A DNA stretch of 64,000 nucleotides from Heterodontus francisci (lineage: Eukaryota). The position numbers and the translations under genes are program-made. Below the pieces are notes generated by a model that had not been told where the DNA came from, ran no database searches, and was given only the letters and a program-made list of their open reading frames with translations. The stretch lies in assembly GCF_036365525.1 (NCBI RefSeq), contig NC_090411.1, positions 31,946,432-32,010,431 of the forward strand, in the 5' to 3' direction. Below are positions 1 through 57,007 of the stretch, one piece after another; the first letter of the stretch is position 1; each line of letters opens with the position of its first letter.

Positions 1-128
1 TTTTGGGGTAAAAATAGAGTCTATGATTGACCGTATCGGTAACTGGGTAAACATTTAAATATATGTTGTGACCTGTGGGGAACTGGAACTAGAAAAAACA
101 ATGCCCTCCTCCCACCTCGGTCAGAACA
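1..128. mobile_element. Right end of solo-LTR-like element
   Basis: Matches the end of the 5023-7906 element (...cctcggtcagaaca followed by gtat). Confidence 0.65.
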
Positions 129-449
129 GTATATAGAGAGAAACTATTTTCCCTGGTGGGGCAGTCCAGGACAGGAGGTATAATCTGAAAATTAGAGCTA
201 GACCATTCAAGGGTGATGTCAGGAAGCATCTCTTCACAAAAAGGGAAGTAAAAAGCTGGAACTGTCTCCCCCAAAATGTTGAGATCAATTAAACATTTCA
301 AAACTGAGACTGTTACATTTTTGTTAGGTACGGGTATGAAACAATATGGAACCAATGCAGGCAAATGGCCTGAAGACACAAACCATGATCTAATTGAATG
401 GCGGAACAGGCTTGAGGGGCTGATTGGCCTCCTCCTGTTCCTATGTTCC
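129..449 (+). mobile_element. 3' end of old CR1 LINE abutting the G1 promoter
   Basis: Degenerate ORF2 C-terminus (LKIRARPF-GDVRKHFFT) and CR1-type tail gatctaattgaatggcggaacaggc...cctcctcctgttcctatgttcc. Confidence 0.75.
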
Positions 450-713
450 AATCACAGTATAATCATCCAAACCTGCCTGAATTCCACAGCTCTCATTGTC
501 TCTGGGTCCAACCCCACAGCCCGGCTACATTGTTAATTGGTGCCTGGATTCATGAATGATTCCTGACTGGCTACCTGGAATTGTCAATCATCATTAATGA
601 TGTCATTCCCCTGTTTGAATGCAGGCTGTCCCAGCAGTATAAATACAAGAGCTTGTGTAGGAATCAGTTAGATTGTTGTTGTTTGAACTTAGCTTCTGTT
701 CGTAGTAAAGATT
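418..713 (+). promoter_or_regulatory. Type-A ferritin promoter of G1: CCAAT boxes (423-427 inverted, 448-452), PBX/MEIS-like TGTCAATCA (582-590), CRE-like TGATGTCA (598-605), TATAAATA (638-645), Inr TCAGTT (664-669), approx. 48-nt 5'UTR
   Basis: TATA-to-Inr spacing is 28 nt. The block recurs before all type-A genes (TATA position at 8405, 19984, 29966, 40644, 47738, 54345). TSS is predicted, not mapped. Confidence 0.7.
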
Positions 714-2931
714 ATGATGGCCTCTCAAGTGTGTCAGAACTACCACAAGGACTGTGAAGATGCTGTTAACAAGCAAATCAACCTGGAGCTCTATTCCTCC
801 TATGTTTATCTTTCCATGGTGTGTATTGTTTTCTTGGGGTCCTATTTCAAAGTTAAGAATGAATTTCAATGCATTTTTGAGTAGCGAGAATTTTTCTAGG
901 CCAATCAGTTGGGTTTATAATTTATCTCTCTCGTTCCCCCGAGACTTAAATCAGTGAACACCCTTGAAATAAGGACTCTATTCCTTGCTCTATAATATTT
1001 ATGTCCAATTTTGAAAGTAACTCCGAGGTTCCATGAAGTTTCTAATAGAGGATTCATGTTGAAGATGTATAAATCTAGTCATCATTTCCAACTTGGATGG
1101 CAACAATTAAGTTCAGTAACTAGTTAGTGAAACATTGTCTGTCTTTCCCCTTTTTTTTTTGTAAATGAGTAAATTTTGTGGTGTTGAGCTCCTTCTTTGT
1201 TTTGTATGAGGAGTAATGATCTTGCATGAAGCAGTAATCTAAGTCTTTCTCTACTGAATGAAGAGAGAAAAAAACTCACTTGCATCTTCATTGGGGGGAC
1301 AAGGGATGTCCTGCTGATAATTATAGCTTGAATGATGAAATGCAACTTTGATCCAAATAGTATTCCTGCCTTCTGTAATGTCACAGGGAGGGGCATTTCA
1401 ACATATTTAGCATTTTATAGCATAAACTTCAAAAACCAAGCCCCTTAATTGAAAGCAAATTCTTCTGAGGTAAAGAATGGGTGACTTATTTACCATGATG
1501 TTGCTACCATTTTTGACTTGGCCATAAATGAGATTGGGTCTGACGCCCTGTCCTTTTCATTTTGCTTCTACCTGCAGTCCTATTACTTTGACCGGGATGA
1601 TGTTGCCCTGCGTCACTTTGCTGAGTTCTTCAAGGAGCAGTCACATGAGGAACGGGAGCACGCTGAGAAACTGATGACATTCCAGAATAAACGTGGAGGC
1701 CGAATCATCTTGGAGAACATCAAGGTTGGATTTTGAACTTGGAGTCTATGATCTAACTTGGATACTTTCAGAGAATATTCCTTATTCTAATGTCAGCTCT
1801 CCATCTGGTGAGGTTGAGTAAAATTCCAAATGTTGGTGAGTGGCTGCAGGATGAGTTGGTATGACTGATCTTTGCCTCTTCTATAGATACAAAATCAATA
1901 AATGGATATTCAGAAGGAACAATTTCTGCATCAAAAGCCATTGGCTCAAACATATGGTGCCTAACTAGGTAACAGTCTGGAGAATGTGGGCCACAGCTCT
2001 AGACTTCCTGTGGATGAAGTTGATGTTAAAAGGATGCGGAGAAAGGAACATTGGAGCATATTCGGGGTAATTGGGATTAGAGCTTTGGCCAAAAATGGCA
2101 GAGCAATGAACAGATCCTGTGTCCTGTAATGGTCTGTCAACCCAGTGGTTAAACCCCATTCCTCACAATGGTCCCTTGTAGTATTGAGGTGCACAGATTA
2201 TCTTTGTTGTTGCTAACTTTGTTGACCTTGAGCATAACATCCCTTGGACTTTGCACTCCCACTAATAGGACCACTATTCTGTTCCAGAAGCCAGAGCAGG
2301 AAGAGTGCAGCAATGGTTGGGAGGCAATGCAGAGAGCTCTGCAGATGGAAAAGGATGTGAACCAGAGACTGCTGGATCTACACAAACTCTCCACTGGCAA
2401 CACTGACCCTCATGTAAGTTCCTAACATTGCAATTATTCATGAGTTAGTGATATTGGAATCTACCCTTCACTCTACATTGGTAAAATTCTGTGTCAGTTT
2501 GTTTTTCACTTTCAGATTTTTGTTTCTGGGCCAAGAAGCCATCTATAATGTAGACCTGGATCACTAAACTGTTCCCAAGGCACTTTGTATCTGCAGCATT
2601 AAAATGTTTCTAGTGCAGTCCATTCCCCATTTATTAAAATTGATTTGCCATTTCTGGGTAATTCTGCTCTTGTCTAGTTAAATGTGCACATGTCACACTG
2701 TCCCAATTCCAAACAAGTGTAATTTCACTTCTGGAAAAGATCCTCATTAAACATCTGTTTGGCATTTTCTATTTCATGTTCTAGTTGTGTGATTTCCTGG
2801 AGACTCACTACTTGGATGAACAAGTGAAGATGATCAAGAAGCTTGGAGATCACATCACCAACCTGAAGAGACTGGGAGCTCCTGACAATGGCATGGGAGA
2901 GTACCTGTTTGACAAGCACACGTTGAGTTGA
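714..2931 (+). CDS. fth1: Ferritin heavy-chain-like gene G1, intact, 174 aa; exons 714-818, 1578-1724, 2288-2413, 2785-2931
   Basis: Spliced translation [174 protein letters not shown]. Exon sizes 105/147/126/147 nt, GT-AG, typical vertebrate ferritin gene layout. Ferroxidase residues E27, Y34, E61, E62, H65, E107, Q141 (human H numbering) are present. Exact H versus M orthology needs a tree. Confidence 0.95.
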
Positions 2932-2970
2932 TTAGCATTCTAGAGTCATTAGTTCTATAATATTGGTTGA

Positions 2971-3036
2971 AATAAAATGTGTTCCATTTCTGGTTAATAT
3001 GTAGTTTTCTCATCGCTTGCAATATGTGGAAATAAA
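2971..3036 (+). terminator. Tandem polyadenylation signals of G1 (AATAAA at 2971 and 3031)
   Basis: Two AATAAA 40 and 100 nt after the stop, followed by a T-rich tract. Both are present in G1, G3, G4, G6, G7, G10; only the distal one in G2, G5, G8, G9. Confidence 0.7.
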
Positions 3037-3329
3037 AGTATTTATCATGGACTGGTTTTTTTTCTTTTCACCTTTTGTACAGATAAGTAACTCATTTTGT
3101 TATTCAGATCAGCAAGATTGCTAGTTGTCCAATATCTGACCCCATTGAAAGTTTAGCATGCCTTTTGAGTTTTGCCCTCCTACATGCAGCTTCCATTTGT
3201 CATTGAGAAATTTGTAGGGATATTTGAACTATTCAGTTTTGCTGCAATGGTAGTTTCTGGCATTTACAAATGAGATGCCATGCAGTTGTGGAATATTAGG
3301 GAGGGGCAATGAATTAGTGGCTTTTGTTT

Positions 3330-3665
3330 TGACCCCTATTCTGATTGGAGAAAAGGAAATTGCAGAGAGATTTGATAGCAGTGTAAAGATTATGGCAGGT
3401 ACTAGGGCATACAAACTTAAAGGGTTTAGGCAAGAGATATGTGAGGAGAACTTTTTTTGGATATATAAACCAGTGGCAATAACCGTGCTGTGAATGATGG
3501 CAGTGTAGCCAATAAATGATTTCAAAAGGAAATTAGATGAGCAGTTGGAGGGGGGAAAAAAACTCACAGGTGCCAGAGCAGCAGAATGGGACTGAATGCA
3601 TTGTACTGGTCACCAAAGACTCCATGGACCGAATGGCTGCCTGTCATAAATGACTGTGACTCTAG
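3330..3665 (+). mobile_element. Old CR1 3' fragment in P-type 3' flank (paralogous copies approx. 26310-26665, 37410-37755, 44070-44430, 61560-61905)
   Basis: ggagaaaagg..gagagatttgatag..ttcaaaaggaaattagatgag..atggaccgaatggc..cctgt resembles a CR1 ORF2 end and 3'UTR. Confidence 0.55.
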
Positions 3666-5771
3666 TCATTGTAAAGCATTCACCATCTTAATTTGCCTTG
3701 TGATCAGGTTGTCATTTGTTCAACTACTACTTACACTCATGTTCACCAATGTCCTGGATGAGTAAATGAAGAAATACTTGGCTCAGGTCATCACAACACT
3801 GTATTTCAGGTAAAATCTTCCCTCGCTATCAACTCTCAATAGAGGTCTTCTTTGTAGAAGCAACAATACAGGACTTTACAACTCTTAAATTCCATGGGGC
3901 TAGACCTCCATGTTGCACTGAGACGGAGCAAAAGAGTTCTGTTTGAAGCTCTCCACTTTTCATTTCCCCCAACATGTCGGTTGCTTTGCAGATTCACTGT
4001 ACAATGTCTTGGGCTGGCCAATCTCTTTCGATCTATTATGGTCAGCACTAGTATCACAGATTCATTCTAGACCCATCAAGCGCAGTGTCAATTCTCCAAG
4101 AGATGGATCCAATTGTGCTCAACACAAAATGAATTTCCATTCACAGACTCCTGTGATTATGTTGACAAGCTCTGAATCTGAGAACAGATTCACTTTGAGG
4201 AAAACTCAAAGAAGCCAACATCAAATACATCATTGACAAGATTCTACTGAAGCGATTAGGAAAAACGGAAGTACATGGAATTGCAGGAAACCTTTAGACA
4301 TGGTTGTGGAGTTGGTTGGGAGGTCGGAAAGAGAGAGTAGAGATAATGGGTATGAACTCCAATTGGCAGGATGTAACTAGTCATCTCACCCAGGGGTCTG
4401 TACCAGGGCCTCGGTTTTTCATTACATTTATAAATGACATGAAGGAATCGAGAGCCATATATCCAAGTTTGTTAATGACACTAAGTTAGGTGTTACAGTA
4501 GGTAGAGTAAATTTGAGCAGAAAATTGAAAAGCGACATTGATAGACTAAGTGAGTAGCCAAAACTGTGATAGATCAATTTCAATGTGAGATAGAGCGAGA
4601 ACAGAGAGAGATAAATCAGAGTATTTTCTAAATGGTGAGGAGCTAGGAACTGTGGAGGAGCAGAGAGAGTTAGGGGTCTGTGTACAGAAATTACTAAAAG
4701 CTAGTGGAATGGTATATAAATGAATTTAAAAAGTCTCATACACTTATAGTCTTCATCTCAAGGGTCTGGAATACAAAGGGGTGGAGGTTATGCTTTATTT
4801 GTATAAAGCTCTGGTTAGATCACATCTGGAGTATTGTGTTCAGCTTTGATATATTGACCTTGGTGGGAGTGCAGCACAGATTCACCAGAATGATACCAGG
4901 GATAAAAGGGTTAAATTACGAGGACAGTTTGCATTAACGACTCTTGTATTATACAAGTATAGAAGAGTAAAGAATTATTATAATTGATGTGTTTAACATG
5001 AGTACTAGATTTGATCAGGTGTTGTTATAACGGTGTTGCTACTTTCTTGTTGGTCTTTTTTGGCAGACTCATATTTTAGATTTATGGCCATTGTTTTATT
5101 TTGGGAAAACTGAAAAGGATTCCATGGATTTTCTTTTCACTGGGGTCATTGAAAGGGCACTGAGAGGATTTGTGGTGAACAACCCTCACTGGCAGTCTCC
5201 TGTCTTCAGATAAATATCCCAGCAGGGGCTTTTTGACTTGGAGAAGATGTTTACAGAGAAGTGACAGGTTAAGATTTATAGGGGTCAGGAGACTTGACTC
5301 TTGAGATATTCTTTTTGATTTTGCTTTGAACAGTGTGTTGGAGTGTGAACTGTTTTGAAGACAATTGGAGAAAACCAGCCAAGAGAGCAGTCACCATCAG
5401 CATCCTCTTCCATCTTTTTGAGAACTTCCTGTGAATTAAGTGTAAGAAATAGAGAAACTGATGCTGCATGTCTCCTGAAAAGGCTGCCAGAAACCCTGAC
5501 GGTGCATCCCATCTGGAAAACCAGCCAAACTGATCTTCAACGTCGCCTGAAAGAACTATTCTAGAAAGATCCCAGTGCCAGCTGTCTACACATATTTGGG
5601 ACGCCAAACCAAAAAAGGGACAACTGACATCTTTCCATATCTTCTCTTTTTTCTTCAAGAATTAACAAGTATTTGGCTAAAGTATTCTTTTTGTCTTTTT
5701 TTGTAACGGAGCTCTAAAAAGAAAATCTCTTTTTCTGGTTATCCAGTGTGTGTATATGTTTCAGTGTGAGG

Positions 5772-7655
5772 TAAAGGCCTGCTACCCGACCCTAACACGA
5801 CAGGACCCGACAACATGTTGGGTACAGTCGGGTTAGGTCGCTCTTTTGTGTCCGGCTTTCGGGCACTTTGGGCAAGAAGTGTTCAAAGTAAAAAACCTAC
5901 CTGAGCTGGGGGTCCGGGACGTCTGTGTCTGATGAGTCAGTACTCCACCATGTTGAACACCACTTGGAGGAAGCACTGAGGGTGGCAAGAGCACAAAATG
6001 TATTCTGGGTGGGGGTCTTCAATGTCCATCACCAACAGTGGGCCATCAGCAGCAGCAGAATTGTACTCAACCACAATCTGTAACCTCATGGCCTGGCATA
6101 TCCCCCACTCTACCAATAGCAATAACCTGCTCAGTGACGCTCAGTTTGGGTTTCGCCAGGGCCACTCAGCTCCTGACCTCATTACAGCCTTGGTTCAAAC
6201 ATGGACAAAAGAGCTGAACTCAAGAGGTGAGGTGAGAGTGACTGCCCTTGACATCAAGGCAGCATTTGACCGAGTATGGCATCAAGGAGCCCTAGCAAAA
6301 CTGAGGTCAATGGGAATCAGGGGGAAAACCCTCCGCAGGCTGGAGTCATACCTAGCGCAAAGGAAGATGGTTGTGGTTGTTGGCGGTCAATCATCTGAGC
6401 TCCAGGACATCACTGCAGGAGTTCTTCAGGGTAGTGTCCTAGGCCCAACCATCTTCAGCTGCTTCATCAATGACCTTCCTTCAATCATAAGGTCAGAAGT
6501 GGGGATGTTCGCTGATGATTGCACAATGTTCAGCACCATTCGTGACTCCTCAGATACTGAAGCAGTCCGTGTAGAAATGCAGCAAGACCTGGACAATATC
6601 CAGGCTTGGCTGATAAGTGGCAAGTAACATTCGCGCCACACAAATGCCAGGCAATGACCATCTCAAACAAGAGAGAATCTAACCATCTCCCCTTGACATT
6701 CAACGGCATTACCATCGCTGAATCCCCCACTATCAACATCCTAAGGGTTACCATTGACCAGAAACTAAACTGGAGTAGCCATATAAATACCGTGGCTACA
6801 AGAGCAGGTCAGAGGCTAGGAATCCTGAGGCGAGTAACTCACCTCCTGACTCCCCAAAGCCTGTCCACCATCTACAAGGCACAAGTCAGGAGTGTGATGG
6901 AATTTTCTCCATTGCCTGGATGGGTGCAGCTCCAACAACACTCAAGAAGCCCGACACCATCTAGGACAAAGCAGCCCGCTTGATTGGCACCCCATCTACA
7001 AACATTCACTCCCTCCACCACCGACGCACAGTGGCAGCAGTGTGTACCATCTACAAGATGCACTGCAGCAATGCACCAAGGCTCCTTAGACAGCACCTTC
7101 CAAACCCGCGACCTCTACCAACTAGAAGGACAAGGGCAGCAAATGCATGGGAACACCACCACCTGCAAGTTCCCCTCCAAGTCACACACCATCCTGACTT
7201 GGAACTATATCACTGTTCCTTTACTGTTGTTGGATCAAAATCCTGGAACTCCCTTTCTAACAGCACTGTGGGTATACCTACCCCAAATGGACTGCAACGG
7301 TTCAAGAAGGCAGCTCACCAGCACCTTCTCAAGGGCAATTAGGGATGGGCAATAAAAGCTGGCCTAGCCAGTGACGCCCACATCCTTGAATGAATTTTTA
7401 AAAAGTCTGCACAGTGAGCGAGTGAGCTTCCCTATGACGTCATCATGCTCAACCTGCAGCTTCCTGCAGATTGGGAGTCGCAAGGTAGGTAAAAGGAACA
7501 TTCCGGTAGTCAGGTTGGCTTCGGGTCGGGTCAGGCTCGGGTCAGGTCGGGCGTGGGAAGAAAATGGAGGGACTCGGGCCGGATCAGGCTCGGGTCCGAT
7601 CTGGTTCTGTTGGGTTCGCATTGGGATATTTTTTCATGACCTAAGCAGGCCTTTA
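5772..7655. mobile_element. Non-autonomous hAT-type MITE (434 bp when uninterrupted)
   Basis: 12-bp TIR TAAAGGCCTGCT...AGCAGGCCTTTA, 8-bp TSD GTGTGAGG (5764-5771 and 7656-7663), subterminal CCCGA/TCGGG repeats. Empty site with a single GTGTGAGG at approx. 39883. Confidence 0.85.
5924..7403 (+). mobile_element. Younger CR1/L2-group LINE fragment (internally deleted) inserted in the MITE
   Basis: RT motifs QFGFRQGHSA, ALDIKAAFDRVWH, GVLQGSVLGP, MFADD; few frameshifts; 3' tail ..gacgcccacatccttgaatgaa. Absent from the other MITE copies. Confidence 0.9.
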
Positions 7656-8477
7656 GTGTGAGGGGCTAAGATAAAAGGGAACTTTCATATTTCAATCTGT
7701 GTGTTACTGGTTAAGTCTGTTTTTATAATAAACTGATAATTCTATTGTTTATTAAAGAAACCTGGTTGGTGCACTTTATTTTGAGATAAAAATAGAGTCT
7801 ATGATTGACCGAATCGGTAACTGGGTAAACATTTAAATATATGTTGTGACCTGTGGAGAAGTGGAACTAGAAAAAACAATGCACTCCTCCCACCTCGGTC
7901 AGAACAGTATATAGAGAGAAACAATTTTCTCAGTCCAGGATAGGGGGTATCATCTTAAAATTAGAGCTAGACCATTCAGGGGTGATGTCAGGAAGCATTT
8001 CTTACAAAAGGGGAAATGGAAATCTGGAATTCTCTCCCCCAAAATATTGACATCAATTAAACATTTCAAAACTGAGACTGTTAGATTTTTGTTCGGTACA
8101 GGTATGAAGCAATATGGATCCAATGCAGGCAAAATGCATTAAGAGACAAACCATGATCTCATTGAATGGTGGAACAGGCTTGAGGGGCTGATTGGCCTCC
8201 TCCTGTTCCTATGTTCCAATCACAGTATCATCATCCAAACCTGCCTGAATTCCACAGCTCTCATTGTCTCTGGGTCCACCCCCACAGCCCGTCTACATTG
8301 TTAATTGGTGCCTGGATTCATGAGCGATTCCTGACTGGCTACCTGGAATTGTCAATCATCATTAATGATGTCATTCCCTGTTTGAATGCAGGCTGTCCCA
8401 GCAGCATAAATACAAGAGCTTGGGTAGGAAGCAGTTATATTGTTGTTTGAATTTAGCTTCTGTTCATAGTGAAGATT

Positions 8478-10691
<2,214 letters not shown>

Positions 10692-12564
10692 TTGGGGTTC
10701 TACAACTATTAATTCTGTACTCGCTGAATGCTTTTTGATTGCCAGTTTTCTCATTCCTTGCTGTATATGGAAATAAAAGTATTCATCATGGAGCTGATCT
10801 TTGTATTATTCAGTAGCTGATTTGATTATTCAGATCATTATGCCTAGTTATATAATGATTCCATTTAAACCTTTTCCCTCTCCCAAGCCAGCCTCCCAAC
10901 CTTGGTTCAATGCCTGCTGAGGATAACTTACTCACATCTCCCAATTTGCATTGAGAAGCTTGTGGAGGGTATCTGAAATATGCAGTTTCTGCTACAGAAG
11001 TGTTCTTGCTGCTGTAGATGAAATATTATGAACTTGTGGAATATTGGGAAAGGATACCCAATTAGTACTTGCATGTGACCTTTTTGTCCACTTATTATAG
11101 TCTAGAATTAACCATCTTAATCTACCATTTGTTTAATATCTCTACCCTTATTCACCAAATGGGTATGTTTACCAATGTCCAGCTTGAGTACAGGGAGATG
11201 CGTGGGTCAGGTAGTAAGAGACCCCTACGAATTGAGATCCTAAATCTTCCCTCAAAATAGACTTGCACTTTGTAGCAAGTGCACTGTGACTTTACAGGTC
11301 TTAAATTCCATGGGGATTATGCTCCAGCTCTACAGCATGATGCAGAGCAACAATGTTCACTTTAAAGCTTCTCCATATTCTATTTCCCTAATTTGTTGGT
11401 TGGGTTGTAGAATCAGTGTGGCTCACTTTCCATCTTTTGTGGTCAAGGGTGGTATCCCTGATGTGGTCTAGACCCACCTGGGGTAACATCAATTTTCCAA
11501 GCCATCTTAATTTGGATTGAATTATGCAAAATGGGATTTCCATTAACAAACTCATACAATTACACTATGAATTGCTGATTCTGAACAGATTCAGTTTGAG
11601 GAAAGCCAACACCAAATACATCATGGACAAGGTTCAACACAAGAGATAAGGAAAAATGGAAGCCTGTGCAATTGGAGGAAATTTTCAAATATGGGTGGAG
11701 ATTTGGTTCTGAAATAGGAGAGAGTAGGAATAATGGATATGTACTCCAAACTATGGCTCGTCATCCTTTCCTGGGATCTATACTGGGGCCTCAGCATTTT
11801 GTTATATTTTTATCTGATATCAATAAAGGAATAGAGTGCAGTATATGCAAATTTGTTGATGCCACTATGTTGGGTAGCGCAGTTAGTAGTGTAAATTGGA
11901 GCAGAAATTTGCAAAGGGACATTGATAGATTAAGTGAAATTAAGCAAAAAAGTTATGAATGATGGAGTTTAATGTGAAGACAAGGTTCCAAGTACAGAAA
12001 TTAATAAGAACTAGTGGACAGATACAAAAAAAACTGAAGAAACAAAATCAATGTTCGTCTCTCTAGAGGTCTGAAAATCAAAGTGGTGGAGGTTATGTTA
12101 CAGTTGTATAAAGCTTGGGGTTAACCACATCTGAAGTACTGTGTTCATTCAGTTCTATTGGCCTTGGGGGCACAGCACTGATTCACCAGAATGATACCAG
12201 GGCTAAATGACTTAAATTATAAGGTCACTTTGCACAGTCTGTATTCCCTGGAGTATTGAAGATTAAGGGATGATTATAATTGAGGTGTTGAAGATAATTA
12301 ATGGGTTTAATAATGTAGATAGAAACTATTTCCTCTGGAACAGATTCAGATTAGGCAATTCAGGGATGATATTAGGAAGCATTTCTTCACAACAAGGAAT
12401 ATTGAAATCTGGAACTCTCTTCCCCAAAATGGATCAAGTCAACATTTCAAAATTGATGTTGTTAGGTTTTTGTGAGTTAAGATCATGAAATCATATTGAA
12501 CCAAGGCAGGTAAATGGCATTAAGACACAGAGCAGCCATGATCTAATTGAATGGTGGAACAGAC

Positions 12565-16813
<4,249 letters not shown>

Positions 16814-17984: not shown

Positions 17985-19676
17985 TTAGATAAGGGAACGA
18001 GTAGAGCCCATATGGGACCAAAGTGGCAATCTGTGTGCTGCCAGAGGATATCAGTGAGGACTTAAATGATTATTTTTCATCTGTGTTCACTATGGAGAAG
18101 GACAATGTAGGTGCAGTGAGGGGATCGGGATATACTCGAACAAACTAGCATTGAAAGGGAGGAGGTATGCACAGTTTTAGCAGGCTTAAAAGTACAGAGG
18201 GACCTTGGTATATTTGTCCATAGATCACTGAAGGTAGCAGCCCAGGCCCAGATGAAATGTATCCCAAACTGTTATGTGAGGTAAAGGAGGAGATAGCAGG
18301 AACTCTGGCCACAGGACAGGTGCCAGAGGACTGGAGGACAGTGAATGTGGTTCCATTGTTCAAGAAGGGAAGCAGGGATAAACCAGGTAATTACAGGCCA
18401 GTGAGTCGAACATCAGTGGTTGGGAAACTATTGGAAACAGTTCTGAGGGACAGGATTAATCTCCACTTGGAGAGCAAGGGATTAATCAAGGATAATCAGC
18501 ATAGCTTTGTCAGGGGGAGATCATGTCTAACAAACTTGATAGAACTTTTTGAGGGGTGACTAGATGCGTAGATGAGGGTAAAGCAGTGGATGTAGTCTAC
18601 ATGGGCTTCAGTAAGGCTTTTGATAAGGTCCCGGAAGGGAGATTGGTTAAGAAGGGAAGAGCCCATGGGATCCAGGACAAATTGGATCTAAAATTGGCTT
18701 AGTGGCAGGAGGCAGAGGGTGATGGTCGACGGTTGCTTTTGCGATTCGAAACCTGTGACCAGTGGTGTACCACAGGGATCGGTGCTGGGACCCTTGCTGT
18801 TTGTAGTGTACATTAATGATTTAGATGCAAATATAGGGGTTATGATCAGTAAGTTCGCAGATAACACGAAAATTGGTGCTGTCGTAAATAGTGAAGAGGA
18901 ACGTCTTAGATTACAGGACGATATGGATGGGCTGGTAAGATGGGCAAACCAGTGGCAAATGGAATTTAATACTGAGAAGTGTGAGGTGATGCATTTTGGG
19001 AGGACTAACAAGGCAAGGGAATATACAATCGGTGGTAGGACCCTATGAAGTACAGAGGGTCAGAGGGACCTTGGTGTACTTGTCCATAGATCACTGAAGG
19101 CAGCAGCACAGGTAGATAAGGTGGTTAGGAAGGCATATGGGATACTTGGCTTTATTAGCCGAGGCATAGAATATAAGAGTAGGGAGGTTATGATGGAGCT
19201 GTATAAAACGCTAGTTAGGCCACAGCTGGAGTACTGTCTACAGTTCTGGTCGCCACACTATAGGAAGGATGAGATTGCACTGGGGAGGGTGCAGAGGAGA
19301 TTCACCAGGATGTTGCCTGGGCTGGAGCATTTTAGCTATGAAGAGAGACTGGATAGGCTAGGGTTGTTTTCCTTGGAGCAGAGAAGGCTGAGGGGGGACC
19401 TGATTGAGGTATACAAAATTATGAGGGGCATAAATAGGGCAGATAGGAAGAAACCTTTTCCCTTAGCGGAGGTGTCAATAACCAGGAGGCACAGATTTAA
19501 GGGAAGGGGAAGGAGGTTTACAGAGGATTTGAGGAAACATTTTTTTAACCAAGAGGGTGGTTGGAATCTGGAACACACTGCCAGAAGGGGTGGTAGAGGC
19601 AGGAACCCTCACAACATTTAAGAAGTATTTAGATGAGCACTTGAAATGTCATAGCATATTAGGCTACGGGCCAAGT
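17985..19676 (+). mobile_element. Younger CR1 LINE ORF2 (RT and C-terminal part) between G3 and G4
   Basis: VPEDWRTVNVVPLFKKGSRDKPGNYRPVS, SGVPQGSVLGPLLF, SKFADNTK, LVRPQLEYC. Confidence 0.92.
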
Positions 19677-21647
19677 TTGGGTATGAAGCAATATGGAACC
19701 AATGCAGGTAAATGGCCTTAAAACACAAACCATGATCTAATTGAATGGTGGAACAGGCTTGAGGGGCTGATTGGCCTCCTCCTGTTCCTATGTTCCAATC
19801 ACAGTATCATCATCCAAACCTGCCTGTATTCCACTGCTCTCATTGTCTCTGGGTCCAACCCCTCAGCCCGTCTACATTGTCAATTGGTGCCTGGATTCAT
19901 GAACGATTCCTGACTGGCTACCTGGAATTGTCAATCATCATTAATGATGTCATTCCCTGTTTGAATGCAGGCTGTTCCAGCAGTATAAATACAAGAGCTT
20001 GTGTAGGAAGTAGTTGGATTGTTGTTATTGGAACTGGGCTTTTGTTAGTAGTAAAGATTATGATGGCCTCTCGTATGTCAGAATTACCACAAGGACTGTG
20101 AAGATGCTGTTAACAAGCAAATCAACCTGGAGCTCTATTCCTCCTATGTTTATCTTTCCATGGTGTGTATTGTTTTCTTGGGGTTCTGTTTCAAAGTTAA
20201 GATTGGAATTTCAATGCATTGAGAATCTAGAATTTCTCTAGGCTAATCAGTTGGGTTCATAATCTTTTTCTCTAGTCCTCCCTTGACTTAAATCTGTGAA
20301 CACCCTTGAAGCAGAGACCCTGTTCCTTGCTCTGTAATATTTGTGTTCAATTTTTGAAAGTTATTCCAAGGTTCTGTTTGGTTTCCAATAGAGGATTCAT
20401 TTTGAAGATGTATAAACCTAGTTATCTTTTCCAACTTGGATGGCAACTATTAAGTTTAGTGAAACTTTGTCTGATTAGTTCTGGTCTGTCTTTACTTTTC
20501 CCCCTTTGTAAATGAGTAAATCTTGTGATGCTGAACTCTTTTTTTTTTTTTTTTGTATGAGGGATAATCTTGCATGAAGCAGTCATCTACTGATTTGTTT
20601 TTTTTTCTTCAATCATTTAAATATTCATTGGGGGACAAAGGATGGCCTGCTGAACAATAGTTTGAATGCTGAAATGGAATTTGGATCCAAATAGTATTAT
20701 TGCTTTTTGTAATGTCACAGGGAGGGGCCTTTCAACATACTTGGTGTTTTACAGCATAAACTTGAAAAACCAAGCCCCTTTAATTGAAAGCAAACTCTTT
20801 TGATGTAAAGAATGAGTGATTTATCTACCATGATATTACTACCATTTTTGACATGGCTGCCAATGAGTTTTGGGTCTGGCTTCTCTCTCTTTCCATTTTG
20901 CCTCTACCTGCAGTCCTATTACTTTGACCGGGATGATGTTGCCCTGCGTCACTTTGCTGAGTTCTTCAAGGAGCAGTCACATGAGGAACGGGAGCACGCT
21001 GAGAAACTGATGAAATTCCAGAATAAACGTGGAGGCTGAATCATCTTGGAGAACATCAAGGTTGGGTTTTTAACATGAAGGAGTCTATGATCTAACTTGG
21101 ATACTTTCAGAGAATGTTCCTTGTTCTAATAACTTCAGTTCTCCATATGGTGAGATTAAGGAGTAAAATTTCTAGTGTTGGTGAGTGGCTATAGAATGAG
21201 TTGGTATGGCTGATCTTTGCCTCTTCTATAGATATAAGGTCAATAAATGGATATTCAGAAGGAACAACTTCTGCATTGTGAAGTATTGGCTCAAACATAA
21301 ATGTCAGTTATACAGGCCCTTTGCCCATCATTTCTGAGACAACCATCAAGCATTGATCTATTCTAATCCTATTTTCCAACACTTGGCCCCTTGCCTTGCA
21401 TGTTATGGCATTTCAAGTACACAACGAAACACTAAAATGATGAGGGTTCCTGCCTCTACCACCCGTTCAGTGTTCTAGATTCTAACAGCCCTTTGGGTGA
21501 AAACATCTTTCTTCAAATCCCCACTAACCCTCTTGCCCCCTTCCATTAAGTCTATGCCTCCTGGTTATTGATCCCTCTGCTAAAGGAAAAAGTTTCTTCC
21601 TATCTTTTGTATTAATGCCCCTCATAATTTTGTATACCAGTCAGCTT

Positions 21648-21652
21648 CCCCC

Positions 21653-21683
<31 letters not shown>
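21648..21683. repeat. Poly-C tract
   Basis: About 30 consecutive C, at the position of a short G-run of the CR1 consensus-like sequence. Confidence 0.9.
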
Positions 21684-24084
21684 ACCCTTCGCTCTGAGAA
21701 AAACAACCCTAGCCTATCCAGTCTCCCTTCATAGCTGCAATTCTCCAGCCCAGGCAGCATCCTGATGAATCTCCTCTGCACCCTCTTGTGCAATCTCATC
21801 CTTCCTATAGGGTGGTGACTGGAACTGTACACTACTCCAGCTGTGGCCTAACTAGCATTTTATACAGCTCCATCACAATCTCCCTGCTCTTTTATTCTAT
21901 GCCTCGGCTAATAAAGGCAAGTATCCCATATGCCTTCCTAACCACCTTATCTACCTGTGCTGCTACCTTCAGTGATCTATGGACAAATATACCAAGGTCC
22001 CTCTCACCCTCTGTACTTCCTAGGGTCCTGTCTCCCATTGTATATTCCCTTGCCTTGTTAGTCCTCCCAAATACATCACCTCGCACGTCTCAGGATTAAA
22101 TTCCATTTGCCACTGCTCCACCCATCTTACCAGCCCATTATATCATCCTGCAATCTAATACTTTCCTTCTCACTATTTACAACACCACCAATTTTCATGT
22201 CATCTGCAAACTTACTGATTGTACCTCCTATATTTGTGTGAAAATCATCAACGTATGTTACGAACAGTCCCAACACTGATCCCTGCAGTGCACCACCAGT
22301 CACAGGTTTCCACTCGCAAAAACAACCCTTGACCATCACCCTCAACCTCCTGCCACTAAGCTGATTTTTGGATCCAAATTGCCCTGGATCCCATGGGCTC
22401 TTACCACCTTAACCAATCTCCCTTCTGGGACCTTTATCAAAAGCCTTACTGAAGTCCATGTAGACTACATCAACTGCTTTACCCTCATCTACACATCTAG
22501 TCACCACCTCAAAATTCAATCTAGTTTTAGACTCTATCTCTCCCTAGCAAGGCCATGCTGACTATCTGATTAATCTGTGCCTCTCCAAGTGGAGATTAAT
22601 CCTGTCCCTCAGAATATTTTCCAATAGTTAACCTAGCACTGATAAACTCACTGGTGTGTAATTACCTGGTTTATCCCTGCTACCCTTCTTGAATAATGGT
22701 ACCAGATTTACTGTCCTCCAGTCCTCTGGTACTTCTCCTGTGGCCAAAGATGTTTTGAAAACTTCAGAGCCCCTGCTATCTCCCCTCTTGCCTCACATAA
22801 CAGCCTGGGGTACATCTCATCTGGGCCTGTGGATTTATCCACTTTTAAGCTCGCTAATACTTCCTCCCTTTCAATGCTAATTTGTTCAAGTATATCACAA
22901 ACCCCCTCCCTGATCTCTACACCTACGTCGTCCTTCTCCCAGAGTGAACACAGATGAAAAGTAATCATTTAAAAGCTCACTATGTCCTCTGGCTCCACAC
23001 AGATTGTTACTCTGGACCCTAATGGGCCCTACTCTTGCCCTGGTTATCCTCTTGCCCTTAAATTCCAAGGTGTTTTAAAAGTATTTTTTCTCTATCTTGC
23101 TGGCCAGTGTTTTTTCATGTCCCTTTGCTCTTATTACATTAAGTACTTCTAGACTCTGTTTACTCCGCTAAGGCCTCCACTGTTTTCAGCACTTTGAATC
23201 TGCCGTAAGCTTATTTTTTTTCCTTACCCAATCCTCTAAATCCCTTGAGATCCAGGGTTCCCTGGACTTGTTGGTCCTACCTGCCACCTTTTATGGGAAC
23301 ATGTTGGCCCGAACTCACTATTTGCTTTTTTTAATGACTCCCACTGCTTTGTTGAAGTCTTTCCTACAAGTAGCTGCTCCCAGTCCACTTTGGCCAGATC
23401 CTGTTTCATTGTAATTGGCCTCTCCCCACTTTTTTTATTTCCCCCCCCCAACCCCCATTAGTACTTTTATTTGCAGTCCCTCATTGTCCTTTTCCATAAC
23501 TACCTTAAATCTTCAAGTTATGGCCACTATCTCCAAAATGCTCCCCCACTGACACTTCTACCACCTGTCTGGTTTCATTCTCCAGGATTAGGTCCCATAC
23601 CGTTCTCTTGTGGGACTTCCCATGTGCTGGCTCAAAAAGCTCTCCTGCATGCACTAAGAATTCTGCCCCTTTAAGCCTTTTGCATTAAGACTATCCAAGT
23701 TGATATTGGGGAAGTTGAAATCCCCTACTATTACCCTATTTTTACACCTGAGATTTGCCTACATATCTGTTCCTCTATCTCCCTGACTGTTTAGAGGCCT
23801 GTAGTACACTCCAAGTGATTGCCCCTTTTGTTTTTAAATTCTACCCATATGGCCTCATTTGAGGAACCTAAGATATCATCCCTCTTTACTGCAATAATTG
23901 ACTCCTTGATCAACAGGACAATGCCACCTCTTTTACACCTGCCCCTGTCATGCCTGAAGATTCTGTACCCTAGAATATTGAGCTGTCAGTCATTCCCTTC
24001 CCTCAACCATGTTTGTGATTGCAACAATATCACTCATGTGTTAATCAATGCCCTCAATTCATCTGCCTTAGTAGGAAGAACCCT

Positions 24085-24428
24085 GGGCAGTGCAGTGGTT
24101 AGCACCACAGCCTCAGCTCCAGCAACCTGGGTTCAATTCTGGGTACTGCCTGTGTGGAGTTTGCAAGTTCTCCCCGTGTCTGTGTGGGTTTACTCCGGGT
24201 GTTCTGGTTTCCTCCCACATGCCAAAGACTTGCAGGTTGATGGGTAAATTGGCCATTATAAATTGCCCCTAGTATAGGTAGGTGGTAGGGAAATATAGGG
24301 ACAGGTGGGGGATGTGGTAGGAATATGGGATTAGTGTAGGATTAGTATAAATGGGTGGTTGATGGTCAGCACAGACTCGGTGAGCCAAAGGGCCTGTTTC
24401 AGTGCTGTATCTCTAAACTAAACTAAAA
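24085..24428 (+). mobile_element. Full-length HE1/V-SINE nested in the antisense CR1
   Basis: A-box cagtggttagca, B-box gggttcaattc, V-domain, (ctaaa)n tail. Confidence 0.88.
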
Positions 24429-25732
24429 CAGATGCAATCCAACATGCATTTTCCCCTTGTGCCTCAACAGATCTATATTTGCTCTGCCTTCCAGACTGAC
24501 TCAATTTCTTCTATATTTGACTATGCATCGCTCCCTACTGTAACTTCTCTATCCCATCCCCCTGCCAAATTAGTTTAAACTCCAGCGCCACCACCCCTTT
24601 TCCCCCACCCCACTCCCCAACAGCACCAGCAAACTTCCTAACAAGGATCTTGGTCCTGTTCAAGTTGGATGGATTGCATCTGAACAGGTCCCACCTTTGC
24701 TAGAAACTGACCCAGGAGTCTGGAGACTAAAGCTCTCCCTCTTGCACCACCTCAGCCATGCATTCCTGTGCTCTATCCTCTCATTCCTATACCCACAAGC
24801 ATGTGGCACCAGGAATAATCCAGAGATTAAACCTTTGAGGTACTGCTTTTAATCTGCTGCCTAGCTCCCTAAATTCTTGGTGTTTAATGAGGTAACAGTC
24901 TGGAGAATGTGGTCTACAGTTGTAGACTTCCCATGGACAAAGTTAAGGATTTGGAGAAAGAGAAAATGGAGCATATTTGGGTGAATTGGGGTTGGAGCTT
25001 TGGCCAAAAATGGCAAAGCACACTCAATGAACTGATCCAGTCTCCTCCAATGGTCCCTCATAGTATTGGGTTGTACAGATTATCTTTGCTGCTAACCCTG
25101 TTGACCTTGAGCATAACATCCCTTGGACTTTGCACTCCCACTAACAGGACCACTATTCTGTTCCAGAAGCCAGAGCAGGATGAGTGGAGCAATGGTCTGG
25201 AGGCAATGCAGAGAGCTCTGCAGATGGAGAAGGATGTGAACCAGAGTCTGCTGGATCTGCACAAACTCTCCAGTGGCAACACTGACCCTCATGTAAGTTA
25301 ATATTGGAATGAGTTTTCAGGTTTGAAGGTGATGATTAGAATCTACCCTTAACTCTGGTAGCATTCCATAAGTTTTTTTGTCTTATTTTTAAAAAAAAAC
25401 CAAAACATCCACACTAGATCTTGATCACTCAACAGTTTGCAAGGTACTTGGTTTCTCTGGCATCAATCTTGACTTGACTCCCAGTTTAATGGAATTGATT
25501 TGCCACATGTGGGTAAATTTAGGCTTTGTCTGGTTAAATATATCCACAGAATCTGAATGATTTCCTTCTGTGCTGACCACTTGGCCCACTGCTTGTGCTT
25601 CTTTCTCTCGAGAAAGTCTCGCTCCCATGTGCAGTACTTGTGCCATTATCCCAGTGCAAATAAAAATCTTATCCAATGAAGATTCTTGCTTTTTTTTAAG
25701 CTAACTATACTCACCTGTTTCTCATGTTCTAG

Positions 25733-25876
<144 letters not shown>

Positions 25877-28019
25877 TAATCAGCATTCTAGAATCATTAG
25901 TTCTATAATAATTGAAATAAAATGTGATACATTTCTGGTTAATATGCAATTTTCTCATTTCTTGCTGGATGTGGAAATAAAAGTATTTATCATGGAGTGA
26001 TTTTGTTTTTCTTTGTATAGATAAGTAACTCATTTCATTATTCAGATCACCAAGATACCTAGCTGTCTAATATCTAATTCCACTGAAACTCTACCATGCC
26101 TTTGAGTTTTGCTCTCCTACATCCATCTTCTGAAAATTGATGCAATGTCTGCTAGGCTAGTTTGCTCACATCTTCCAATTTTCATTGAGAAACTTGTAGG
26201 GAATATCTGAAATATGCAAGTTTCATTGCAAAGTTAGTTTCATGCATCTGCAATGAAATATCATGCAGTTGTGCGACATAAGGAAGGGATGCTGAATTTG
26301 GTTTTGACCCTGGTTCTCATTGGAGCAAAGTTGATAGAGATGGTAACATGTTGACCAAGGGAGATGAATTCCTGTTAGCTGATAACACAAGTACTCGCCA
26401 ACACAGCCTTGGGGGGTTTGGGCAAGAGATGTCGGAGTATCTGAGGACAATTTTTTTTTAATACAACCAGTGGCAATGACTTGGAACTTGCTGCTTATGA
26501 GGATGGTGGCAATGCAGTTAGAAAATAACTTCAAAAGGAAATTGGATGAGCATTTGGAGGAAAATACTTGTAGGTGCTAGAGTAGGGGAATGGTGCTGAA
26601 TGTATTGTACTCGACACGAGAGACTCCATGGACCGAATAGCCTCCTGTGTCATAAATGACTGACACTTCATTGTAAAACTTTCACCATTTTAATCTACCT
26701 TTGACCAGGTTGTCATTTGGCCAACTATTACTTGCACCCCTATTCACCCAGGAGCTATATTTCCGAAGGTCTGGGATGAGTGAATGCAGAAATACTAGGA
26801 ACAGGTAGTTATAACCCCCTCTATTTCAGGTTAAAATCATCGCTAGCAAACAAGTCTCAAGTTCAGCTTTGCAGAAGCAACAACACAGGAGTTCACAACT
26901 CTTAAATTCCATGGGACTAAACCTCCATTTTGCACTTAAACGGAGCAGCAGTGTTCTGTTCGAAGCTCTCCACTTTTCATTTCCCTAACATGTCAGTTGG
27001 TTTGCAAATTTGCTTTGGGCTGGCCAATATTTTTCAACATATTGTGGTTAGCACTGTGAGAATACATTCATTCTAGACCCATCAAGCGCAGTGTCAATTC
27101 TCCAAGAGATGGATCCAATTGTGCTCAACACAAAATGAAGTTCCATTTGCAGACTCCTGCGATTATGTTGACAAACTCTGAATCTGAGAACAGATTCAAT
27201 CGGATTCACTTTGAGAAAACTCAAAGTAGCCAACATCAAATACATCATTGACAGGATTCTACTGAAGAGATTAGGAAAAATGGAAGTACATGGAATTGCA
27301 GGAAACCTTTAGACATGGTCATGGAGTTGGTTGGGAGGTAGGAAACAGAGAATAGAGATAATGGGTATGTACTCCAATTGGCAGGATATGACTAGTCATC
27401 TCTCCCAGGGATCTGTACCTGGGCCTCAGTTTTTCATTACATTTATAAATGACATGAAGGAATCGAGAGCCATATATCCAAGTTTGCTAATGATGCTAAG
27501 TTACAGTAGGTGCAGTAAATTGGAGCAGAAAATTGAAAAGCGACATTGATAGATTGTAAGTAGCCAAAACTGTGATAGATAAATTTCAATGTGAGATAGA
27601 GCGAGAACAGAGAGAGATAAATCCGAATATTTTCTAAATGGTGAGAAGCTAGGAACTGTGGAGGAGCAGAGAGAGTTAGGGGTCCGTGTACAGAAATTAC
27701 TAAAAGCTAGTGGAGTGGTATTTAAATGAATTAAAAAGTCGAATAGACTTCATCTCAAGGGTCTGGAATACAAAGGGGTGGAGGTTATGCTTTATTTGTA
27801 TAAAGCTCTGGTTAGATCACATCTGGAGTACTGTGTTCAGCTTTGATATATTGACCTTGGTGGGAGTGCAGCACAGATTCACCAGAATGATACCAGGGAT
27901 AAAAGGGTTAAATTACGAGGACAGTTTGCATTAACGACTCTTGTATTCTTCAAATATAGAAGAGTAAAGAATTATTATAATTGATGTGTTTAACATGAGT
28001 ACTAGATTTGATCAGGTGT

Positions 28020-30038: not shown

Positions 30039-32847
30039 ATGATGGCATCTCAAGTGTGTCAGAACTACCACAAGGACTGTGAAGATGCTGTTAACAAGCA
30101 AATCAACCTGGAGCTCTATTCCTCCTATGTTTATCTATCCATGGTGTGTATTGTTTTCTTGGGGTCCTGTTTCAAAGTTAAGACTGGGATTTCAATGTAT
30201 TTTGAGTAGCTAGAATTTCTGTAGGTCTCACAGCTCCAGCGACCTGGGTTCAATTCTGGGTACTGCCTGTGTGGAGTTTGCAAGTTCTCCCTGTGTCTGC
30301 GTGGGTTTCCTCCGGGTGCTCTGGTTTCCTCCCATATGCCAAAGACTTGCTGGTTGATATGTTAATTGGCCATTATAAATTGCTCCTTGTATAGGTAGGT
30401 GGTAGGGAAATATAGGGACAGGTGGAGATGTGGTAGGAATATGGGATTAGTGTATGATTAGTATAAATGGGTGGTTGATGGTCAGCACAGACTCGGTAGG
30501 TCGAAGGGCCTGTTTCAGTGCTGTATTTCTAAACTAAAACTAAATATTAATTGGGTTTATAATGTATCTTTCTAGTTCTCCTAGACTTCAATCAGTGAAC
30601 ACCCTTGAAACAGGGACTCTATTCCTTGCTCTGTAATATTTATGTCCAATTTTGAAAGTAACTCCAAAGTTCCGCGTGGTTTCCAATAGAGGATTCATGA
30701 TCATGTATAAACCTATTCAACTTGAATGGCAACAATTAAGTTTAGTGACTAGTTAGTGGAACACTGTCTGACTAGTTCTGGTCTGTCTTTCCCCCTTTGT
30801 AAATGAGTAAATCCTGTGGTGCTGAATTCTTTTGTTTTGAGTAATGAATTTGCATGAAGCAGTAATTGAGAAGTCTCATTCAGTCCAATAAGACCTTTAG
30901 ATCACTTGTCTCTTCATTGGTGGACGAAGGATGTCCTGCTGATAAATGTAGTTTAAATGCTGAAATGAAACTTGGATCCAAATAGTGTTACTGCTTTTAG
31001 TAATGTCACTGGGAGGAGCATTTCATCATGGTTAGTATTTTACAATATTAACTTGAAAAACCAAGCCCCTTAATTGAAGAAAATTCTTTTGAGATAAAGA
31101 ATGGATGATTTACCAGGATGTTATTTTTAACATGACCATGAATAAGATTTGGGTCTGACCTCTCCCTTTCCATTTTGCTTCTACCTGCAGTCCTATTACT
31201 TTGACCGGGATGATGTTGCCCTGCGTCACTTTGCTGAGTTCTTCAAGGAGCAGTCACGTGAGGAAAAGGAGCACGCTGAGAAACTGATGACATTCCAGAA
31301 TAAACGTGGAGGCCGAATCATCTTGGAGGACATCAAGGTTAGATTTAATAAGCCGCTCCCTTCAACAGATTGGACTGCAGTTTTGATTCTTTAGGATAAA
31401 AGCAAAATACTGCAGATGCTGGAAATCTGAAATAAAACCAAGAAATGCTGGAACCACTCAGCAGGTTTGGCAGCATCTGTGCAAAGAGAAGCAGTTAACG
31501 TTTTGGGTCGGTGACCCTTCTTCGGAAATCCGGAATGTTAACTCTGCTTCTCTTTCCACAGATGCTGCCAGACCTGCTGAGTGGTTCCAGCATTTCTTGT
31601 TTTTATTTCAGATTTCCAGCATCTGCAGTATTTTGCTTTCATCCTATGTTCCTTTATTCTAATAATGTCAGTACTCAATCTAGAGTTTAATGAGTAAAAT
31701 TTCTAGTGTTGGTGAGTTGGTATGACTGACCTTTGTCTCCTATATTTATAAAATCAATAAATGGATTTTCAGAAGGAACAACGTCTGCTTTGTCAACTAT
31801 TGGCTGAAACATACAGTGCTTAACTAGGTAACAGTCTTGAGAATGTGGGCCACAGCTGTAGATGTCCCTTAGATGTAGTTGAGGATTATGAAGGAGAAAA
31901 AGAAAATTTAGCATATTTGGGGGAATTGGGATCAGAGCTTTGGCCAAAAATGGCAGTGCAGAGGCAATGAACTGATCCAGTGTCCTGTAATGGTCTGTCA
32001 ACCCAGTGATTAAACCCCATCCCTCATAGTATTGGGGTGCACAGATTGTCTTTGTTACTGATAACATTGTTGACCTTGAGCATAACATCCCTTGGACTTT
32101 GCACTCCCACTAAAAAGACTACTATTCTGTTCCAGAAGCCAGAGCAGGATGAGTGGAGCAATGGTCTGGAGGCAATGCAGAGAGCTCTGCAGATGGAGAA
32201 GGATGTGAACCAGAGTCTGCTGGATCTGCACAAACTCTCCACTGGCAACACTGACCCTCATGTAAGTTAATATTGGAATGAGTTTTCAGGTTTGAAGGTG
32301 ATGATTAGAATCTACCCTTAACTCTGGTAGAATTCCATAAGTTTTTTTTTGTCTTCATATTTAAAAACCAAGACATCCACACTAGATCTGGATCACTGAA
32401 CAGTTTGCAAGGTACTTGGTTTCTCTGGCATCAATCTTGACTTGACTCCCAGTTTAATGGAATTGATTTGCCACATGTGGGTAAATTTAGGCTTTGTCTG
32501 GCTAAATATATCCACAGAATCTGAATGATTTCCTTCTGTGCTGACCACTTGGCCCACTGCCTGTGCTTCTTTCTCCAGAGAAAGTCTCGCTCCCATGTGC
32601 AGTACTTGTGCTATTATCCCAGTGCAAATAAAAATCTTATCTAATGAAGATTCTTGCTTTTTTAAGCTAACTATACTCGCCTGTTTCTCTTATGTTCTAG
32701 TTGTGTGACTTCCTGGAGACCCATTACTTGGATGAGCAAGTGAAGATGATCAAGAAGCTTGGAGATCACATCACCAACCTGAAGAGACTGGGAGCTCCTG
32801 ACAATGGCATGGGAGAGTACCTGTTTGACAAGCACACGCTGAGTTAA
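30039..32847 (+). CDS. fth1: Ferritin heavy-chain-like gene G5, intact ORF; exons 30039-30143, 31191-31337, 32136-32261, 32701-32847
   Basis: Open frame to TAA with canonical splice sites. Variant [12 protein letters not shown] box mutated to TACAAATA. Confidence 0.92.
30227..30545 (+). mobile_element. 5'-truncated HE1/V-SINE in G5 intron 1
   Basis: B-box, V-domain and ctaaa tail; absent in G1, G2, G4, G7, G9. Confidence 0.88.
31392..31646. mobile_element. About 255-bp palindromic insertion in G5 intron 2 (probable Penelope-like terminal repeat in inverted arrangement)
   Basis: Arms of about 110 bp are near-perfect reverse complements; the centre contains a degenerate hammerhead core on the minus strand. 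Confidence 0.7.

Positions 32848-40695: not shown

Positions 40696-43635
<2,940 letters not shown>

Positions 43636-54396: not shown

Positions 54397-57007
<2,611 letters not shown>

Follow-up and report, generated by a model that had tools for sequence, protein, structure and literature searches.

An IRE-less ferritin paralogue array in sharks and the likely decay of the canonical NCOA4-ferritin interface

In human FTH1, the substitutions A19Y, N22A and R23A abolish binding of NCOA4 (PMC11076521, N22A in Table 1). The window analysed here, a stretch of 64,000 nt from Heterodontus francisci (C41:31,946,432-32,010,431), contains ten four-exon ferritin units, all on the + strand, and none of them encodes Arg where human FTH1 has Arg23. 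The question is whether these subunits were selected to escape NCOA4, as the initial annotation of the window proposed, or whether the change has another meaning. We examined the whole array, the other ferritins of this shark, and NCOA4 itself.

The ferritin array and its relatives

The codon at the human Arg23 position is AAG at 771-773 in the first copy (G1), CAG at 12918-12920 in G3, and AAG in the remaining eight copies. Three of the ten are pseudogenes, which the initial annotation had not flagged: G4 (20063-25879, with AAG at 20115-20117) carries a frameshift in exon 1 caused by a 2-nt deletion and a TGA in exon 2, G6 (35008-36971) has a TGA at codon 6, and G10 (59178-61124) has a TGA at codon 6 and has lost the end of exon 2. 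The intact copies in the window therefore number seven, six with Lys23 (G1, 717-2931; G2, 8481-10691; G5, 30042-32847; G7, 40720-43635; G8, 47804-50587; G9, 54421-57007) and one with Gln23 (G3, 12864-16813). The exons of G1 lie at 717-818, 1578-1724, 2288-2413 and 2785-2931, and this structure is supported by the GT..AG joints 817>1577 and 1722>2286 found in RNA-type contigs of array-like genes. A TATAAA box (638-643) is located 79 nt before the ATG, leaving a short 5' leader without an IRE, and the GAT at 759-761 places Asp at the human Ala19 position, at the mouth of the NCOA4 cleft. Exon 3 of G1 (2288-2413) contains private changes at conserved positions (EECSNGWE versus DEWSNGLE, plus Arg at the human Ser114 position), so this copy may be decaying.

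The window belongs to an array of ~600 kb containing 91 units, of which 83 have four exons and 68 are intact by our own criteria. These genes match vertebrate H/M-type ferritin in their four exons, length of about 173-176 residues and ferritin sequence, and the database protein P0496 from Heterodontus francisci is an exact match to one array copy. Residue 23 is Lys in 66 of the 68 intact copies, Gln in two and Arg in none, so that the replacement of Arg23 in every copy, noted at first for the window, holds for the whole array. The two Gln23 copies mirror each other within an inverted duplication and differ by 2 nt, which indicates a single event. This duplication spans C41:31.69-31.96 Mb, taking in window positions 1-13,400, and is centered near 31.83 Mb; its minus-strand copies mirror the plus-strand copies at 92-98.5%, in blocks of up to 25.7 kb.

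Other residues of the same surface have changed as well. The replacements reported initially were found in most intact copies (in mature numbering, Q14>K in 66/68, F81>I, which is Phe82 to Ile, in 65/68, and Q83 to E in 54 and to A in 12), and D15 is retained in 66/68. Three further features had been overlooked: A19>D in all 68 copies, D90>E in 64, and a retained Asn22 in all 68. With Asp19, Ile82 and Glu90 present besides Lys23, poor binding to a human-type NCOA4 helix is plausible, and judging from these substitutions (R23K, A19D, F82I, D90E) the array subunits would probably bind such a helix poorly. The contact residues of TfR1 on ferritin are as the initial annotation gave them (PMC6408514), but shark FTH1 also differs at these contacts (Pro or Leu at 14, Leu81).

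The array genes also lack the iron-responsive element, as first proposed: there are no Rfam matches to an IRE in the window, and an IRE-type hairpin was found in none of the 300-nt regions upstream of the 68 intact copies. The residues E27, Y34, E61, E62, H65, E107 and Q141, which we take to be the ferroxidase site set, are each retained in 66-68 of the 68 copies. The array is under purifying selection, with a nonsynonymous/synonymous allele ratio of 0.30. The constancy of Lys23 across copies is not special, since 99 of the 172 positions are invariant and the mean difference between copies is 3.6%. Spliced array-type contigs are present in runs X1 and X2. We note that the RNA-type data are assembled contigs without tissue labels, from runs none of which is on record as RNA, and that contig depths are unusable for ranking genes; missing exon-3 cover in X3 and X4 was not counted as evidence.

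The initial annotation compared these copies with human FTH1, but the true orthologue lies elsewhere, on C14. The C14 ferritin has an IRE (43.7 bits), retains Arg23 together with Ser22 and Leu82, has a bestrophin gene ~50 kb away, and falls among vertebrate FTH1 in a tree of 57 rows (support 100/98). FTH1 and BEST1 are adjacent in humans; in this shark, bestrophin matches occur only on C14, C8 and C43, and the ferritin adjoining one of them is the C14 gene, not the array. In the free tree, the array falls outside the FTH1 clade, and a clade of its own (100/99) comprises sequences from 11 shark genera, including this one. An AU test did not reject a clade uniting the array with shark FTH1 (p 0.184, 27 rows), and it is therefore the free tree, synteny and the IRE that carry the FTH1 assignment. 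The array is most likely not FTH1 but a shark-wide paralogue clade. It does not group with teleost fth1b, and the tree gives no resolution between the array and M chains. RUVBL2 is located 1.1 Mb from the main array, and a glycogen synthase 6 Mb away on the same chromosome. FTL, GYS1 and RUVBL2 are adjacent in humans, and the RUVBL2 linkage hints at the FTL/M chromosome region. The array shares with mammalian FTL and the M/L-type subunits of amphibians and fish that it encodes a non-FTH1 subunit on the RUVBL2/glycogen synthase chromosome, and its ferroxidase residues are conserved, as they are in M chains; unlike them, it has no IRE and about 85 copies.

Lys23 is not confined to this array, contrary to what array-specific resistance would imply. 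Among shark array-type proteins from the 11 genera (118 examined), Lys is found in 101 of the 107 readable ones, Gln in five and Glu in one. A second ferritin array at C41:26.67-26.83 Mb (L009-L011, L108-L117) has Lys23 in 12 and Gln23 in one of the 13 copies read, with no IRE match in these copies. Lys also occupies the position in the sponge protein P0009, in the flounder M chain, and in the solved non-shark ferritins 8ykr and 6lru, which are presumably shrimp proteins. The Lys23 change by itself is ordinary. Four single ferritin genes to the right of the main array differ at this site: L004 has Arg23, L005 Ser23, L008 Lys23, and L006 has Asn22, Arg23 and an IRE. A sawfish relative of L006 likewise retains N22 and R23. 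Sequences of L006 and L005 are seen in runs X2-X4, and L006 and array-type contigs occur together in run X2.

The FTH1 of cartilaginous fish has its own changes in the binding cleft. Ser22-Arg23 is found in all 27 readable rows (30 examined, several of them chimaera alleles) and Leu82 in 30/30, whereas other FTH1 rows have Asn22 in 65 of 66 readable (114 examined) and teleost FTH1 retains N22, R23 and F82. A tuatara M-type row likewise has Ser22. The argument from Ser22 draws on the human mutant N22A, a different substitution at the same residue.

NCOA4 in sharks and other vertebrates

One NCOA4 locus was found in the genome, at C42:21.94-21.96 Mb, and the database protein P0121 from Heterodontus francisci is an exact match to its exon. 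A candidate second gene on C31 (L118:5121-5256) was rejected as an isolated exon fragment of 136 nt, 97% identical. The Cys cluster that corresponds to PDB 9l93 is present in the large exon, from which the ferritin-binding helix DSFQVIKNSPLSEWLI (from PDB 8wiq) is absent. Downstream of the Cys cluster, the helix motif (I489/P493/W497) was found in none of the 13 shark and ray rows, which include no chimaera, versus 89 of the 90 anchored rows from lobe-finned fish and tetrapods; the single miss is a truncated protein, and 20 further rows that lacked the anchor were left out. The segment downstream of the cluster is also shorter, 74-88 residues in sharks and rays versus 123-131, and among the shark and ray rows only the skate row has a Trp in it. 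The count was anchored in this way after two other regular expressions had been tried: one requiring Phe matched 11/120 rows and was too strict, and one applied to whole proteins matched 109/110 and could match an upstream element.

The exon is covered by RNA-type contigs. A contig of run X4 spans it with no differences from the genome, and contigs of runs X2-X4 splice 7298>8826 (GT..AG) straight to the next NCOA4 exon, which leaves no exon hidden between them. In run X1, from another species, 99 unseen letters replace 57 in this region. When eight helix segments were searched in the 80-kb NCOA4 locus by short-word tblastn, the matches listed for the first query were at chance level only. A helix profile peaked at scores of -10.7 to +2.9 across 12 shark and ray proteins, whereas four training rows reached 21.7-47.8. 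This profile is bird-heavy and gave even the hagfish match described below a score under zero; the motif count and the alignment are therefore preferred.

In the hagfish Myxine, the same place in the protein agrees with the mammalian helix at 7 of 16 positions (F, I, P, L and W among them), which suggests that the helix was lost in sharks and rays. The motif had no match in the NCOA4 of lamprey or in the Eptatretus model, and the Myxine helix scored -4.2 on the profile, so the direction of change is uncertain. Ray-finned fish likewise lack the helix motif, in 0/10 rows (P0362, P0411, P0364, P0379 and six others; four were named by their source and six assigned by appearance).

Elsewhere in the protein, shark and ray NCOA4 contains three tandem repeats of the W-G-H-x-x-GLEHWL type (L084:6069-6460), in place of the one or two related elements of other vertebrates. 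In the shark protein these repeats occupy about residues 245-350, and a PLADW element lies at residues 199-203. The C-terminal part of shark and ray NCOA4 is changed, and the CDLF cysteine is missing.

Compared with the human FTH1-NCOA4 pair, the shark proteins keep the general layout. The fold position is the same, the array mostly keeps N22, L27, Y30, R80, K87, V111 and S114, and both the ARA70 domain at the N terminus and the Cys cluster are present in shark NCOA4. The differences lie in the contact itself, with K/Q23, D19, I82 and E90 in the array, S22 and L82 in shark FTH1, and no 484-499 helix in shark NCOA4. Taken at the level of sequence, the canonical NCOA4-ferritin interface has likely decayed on both sides, and this apparent two-sided decay is the part worth testing.

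Interpretation of the Arg23 change

Because the sole NCOA4 detected lacks the helix and the binding cleft of FTH1 has changed, Lys23 can be read as drift on an unused surface. The Arg23 change would then likely mark the end of a partnership in sharks as a whole, and not an escape on the part of the array copies. We lean towards this explanation, in which a shark-wide, IRE-less paralogue array lost Arg23 by probable drift on a surface left without its partner, with the NCOA4 helix gone and the FTH1 cleft altered. Such a large set of IRE-less genes with TATA promoters would allow bulk synthesis of an active, iron-loading ferritin under transcriptional control. The site of expression is probably the ovary, following a report from the Greenland shark, where the array might stock iron for large yolky eggs. 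Stored iron could be released without the canonical NCOA4 helix, for example by bulk lysosomal or yolk proteolysis.

Several observations fit less easily with an unused surface. Ray-finned fish lack the helix, yet teleost FTH1 keeps N22, R23 and F82, and knockdown of ncoa4 in zebrafish impairs erythropoiesis (PMC4592949), so binding may survive without the helix. In shark FTH1, Arg23 never varies, and both N22 and R23 persist in L006 and in its sawfish relative, which suggests that something still constrains that surface. Shark NCOA4 might accordingly still bind ferritin through a relocated motif, either PLADW or the GLEHWL-type repeats, and support normal ferritinophagy, with Lys23 and Asp19 fitting the new motif or with array subunits riding in mixed cages alongside Arg23 subunits. 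The gene is intact and spliced with its Cys cluster in place, the tryptophan repeats are expanded in all aligned shark and ray rows, L006, with its N22, R23 and IRE, occurs in the same run as array-type contigs, and in human cells a few wild-type subunits suffice (PMC4592949). We nevertheless regard it as rather unlikely. Human NCOA4 1-245, which by alignment should hold the counterpart of PLADW, did not bind ferritin in the same study, the profile scores of shark and ray proteins stay far below those of the training rows, and N22 and F82 are gone from shark FTH1.

The proposal of the initial annotation, that Lys or Gln at 23 was selected for escape from NCOA4 and that the array is a constitutive one-way iron sink or an anti-ferroptosis system, seems to us improbable. 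Arg is missing from every intact copy, A19D, F82I and D90E fall in the same cleft in which A19Y and R23A disrupt the human complex, the IRE is missing, and Yang et al. 2026 propose a link between the ferritin expansion and ferroptosis (PMC13214024). Each of these would fit escape, but NCOA4 itself has no helix to escape from, Lys is frequent outside the array, and site 23 is no more constant than 99 of the 172 positions. Human Arg23 acts largely through its aliphatic stem, which Lys keeps along the pocket, and R23L retained 86% of co-immunoprecipitation, yet gave no ITC signal (PMC11076521). In human cells, lysosomes still receive cages composed mainly of R23A subunits (PMC4592949), and the largest shark cluster is reported to be ovary-specific (Sahm et al. 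2024, bioRxiv 10.1101/2024.09.09.611499), both of which speak against a constitutive one-way sink. What survives of the resistance idea is the probable poor fit to a human-type helix, together with the missing IRE, while resistance specific to the array does not, as NCOA4 lacks the helix and Lys23 is widespread. The initial annotation had itself named Lys23 in ordinary single-copy ferritins as evidence that would overturn its reading, and this is largely what the survey shows. At the other extreme, Lys and Arg may simply be interchangeable, with the array behaving as any M/L-type subunit and no effect on iron turnover. Lys in the solved non-shark ferritins, the sponge protein and the flounder M chain would agree with this, as would human FTL, which has Ser at the position (PMC11076521) and is degraded in mixed cages (PMC4592949). 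We consider this the least probable of the readings, as it leaves the missing NCOA4 helix and the Ser22 of all cartilaginous-fish FTH1 rows read unaccounted for.

Returning to a lost partnership, a wider proposition can be put forward tentatively, at somewhat less than even confidence: the helix may have been lost in sharks and rays and, probably as a separate event, in ray-finned fish, so that canonical ferritinophagy would be absent from most fish, and sharks may have remodelled FTH1 (Ser22, Leu82) and assembled ~85 IRE-less genes into an array that serves as a bulk store, from which iron would leave by a different route.

The expansion of the array is already published, and the missing helix in shark NCOA4 is the new point. 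Yang et al. 2026 described 59 'FTH1b' copies in two clusters and tied them to ferroptosis via NCOA4 (PMC13214024). These clusters resemble ours in being large tandem clusters of mostly intact genes common to sharks, with two of them, one large and one small, on the same chromosome; the counts are 55+4 there versus 83 four-exon units and at least 13 copies here. Sahm et al. 2024 reported ancient shark ferritin clusters, the largest being the ovary-specific one in the Greenland shark, and we infer that the Greenland shark clusters correspond to this array and the second array. Neither Arg23, the IRE nor the NCOA4 sequence is treated in the available parts of these two papers (0 matches for NCOA4, Arg23 and iron-responsive in five supplements of Yang 2026). 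We found no literature on NCOA4-ferritin binding in sharks or fish or on the missing helix, in a search thin on subscription journals, and the available text of PMC9452830 contains nothing on fish. If shark NCOA4 is indeed unable to grip ferritin, the published link of ferritin expansion to ferroptosis and longevity (PMC13214024) would need another route, and if it does grip ferritin, an undescribed motif would be in use. As the ray-finned rows also lack the helix, the matter bears on zebrafish as a model of ferritinophagy; helix loss, if real, would undercut the idea that the fish gene behaves like its mammalian counterpart.

Other sequences around the arrays

A Pfam scan of 91 of 730 open frames detected no host gene flanking the array above the cut-off, and the matches were mostly LINE proteins. 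Long open LINE frames lie on both flanks, and LINE-type reverse-transcriptase fragments are found between and within array genes (window 5998-6983, 13742-14431 and 18257-19621; also L077, L079 and L094). Linkage to BAX was sought through a Bcl-2 family search and dropped, as it was swamped by dispersed matches; there were 150 genome-wide, most covering only model positions 1-63, and they probably represent a repeat resembling or carrying a Bcl-2 fragment.

In the second array, the three copies with exon 2 read have Lys at the ferroxidase E62 position, and this array is possibly L-like. The L008 gene (L008:4857 to L020:1418) is divergent, with most ferroxidase residues missing and a very long branch. 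The first exon of the L005 gene lacks the usual ATG, and an IRE-like hairpin with a CAGUCC loop is located ~3.9 kb upstream of this gene (L004:8330-8363, + strand), near which an upstream exon of L005 possibly lies. Intronless retrocopies of the array, the second array and FTH1 are present on other contigs (L012-L017 and L019), and the one at L015 keeps an IRE.
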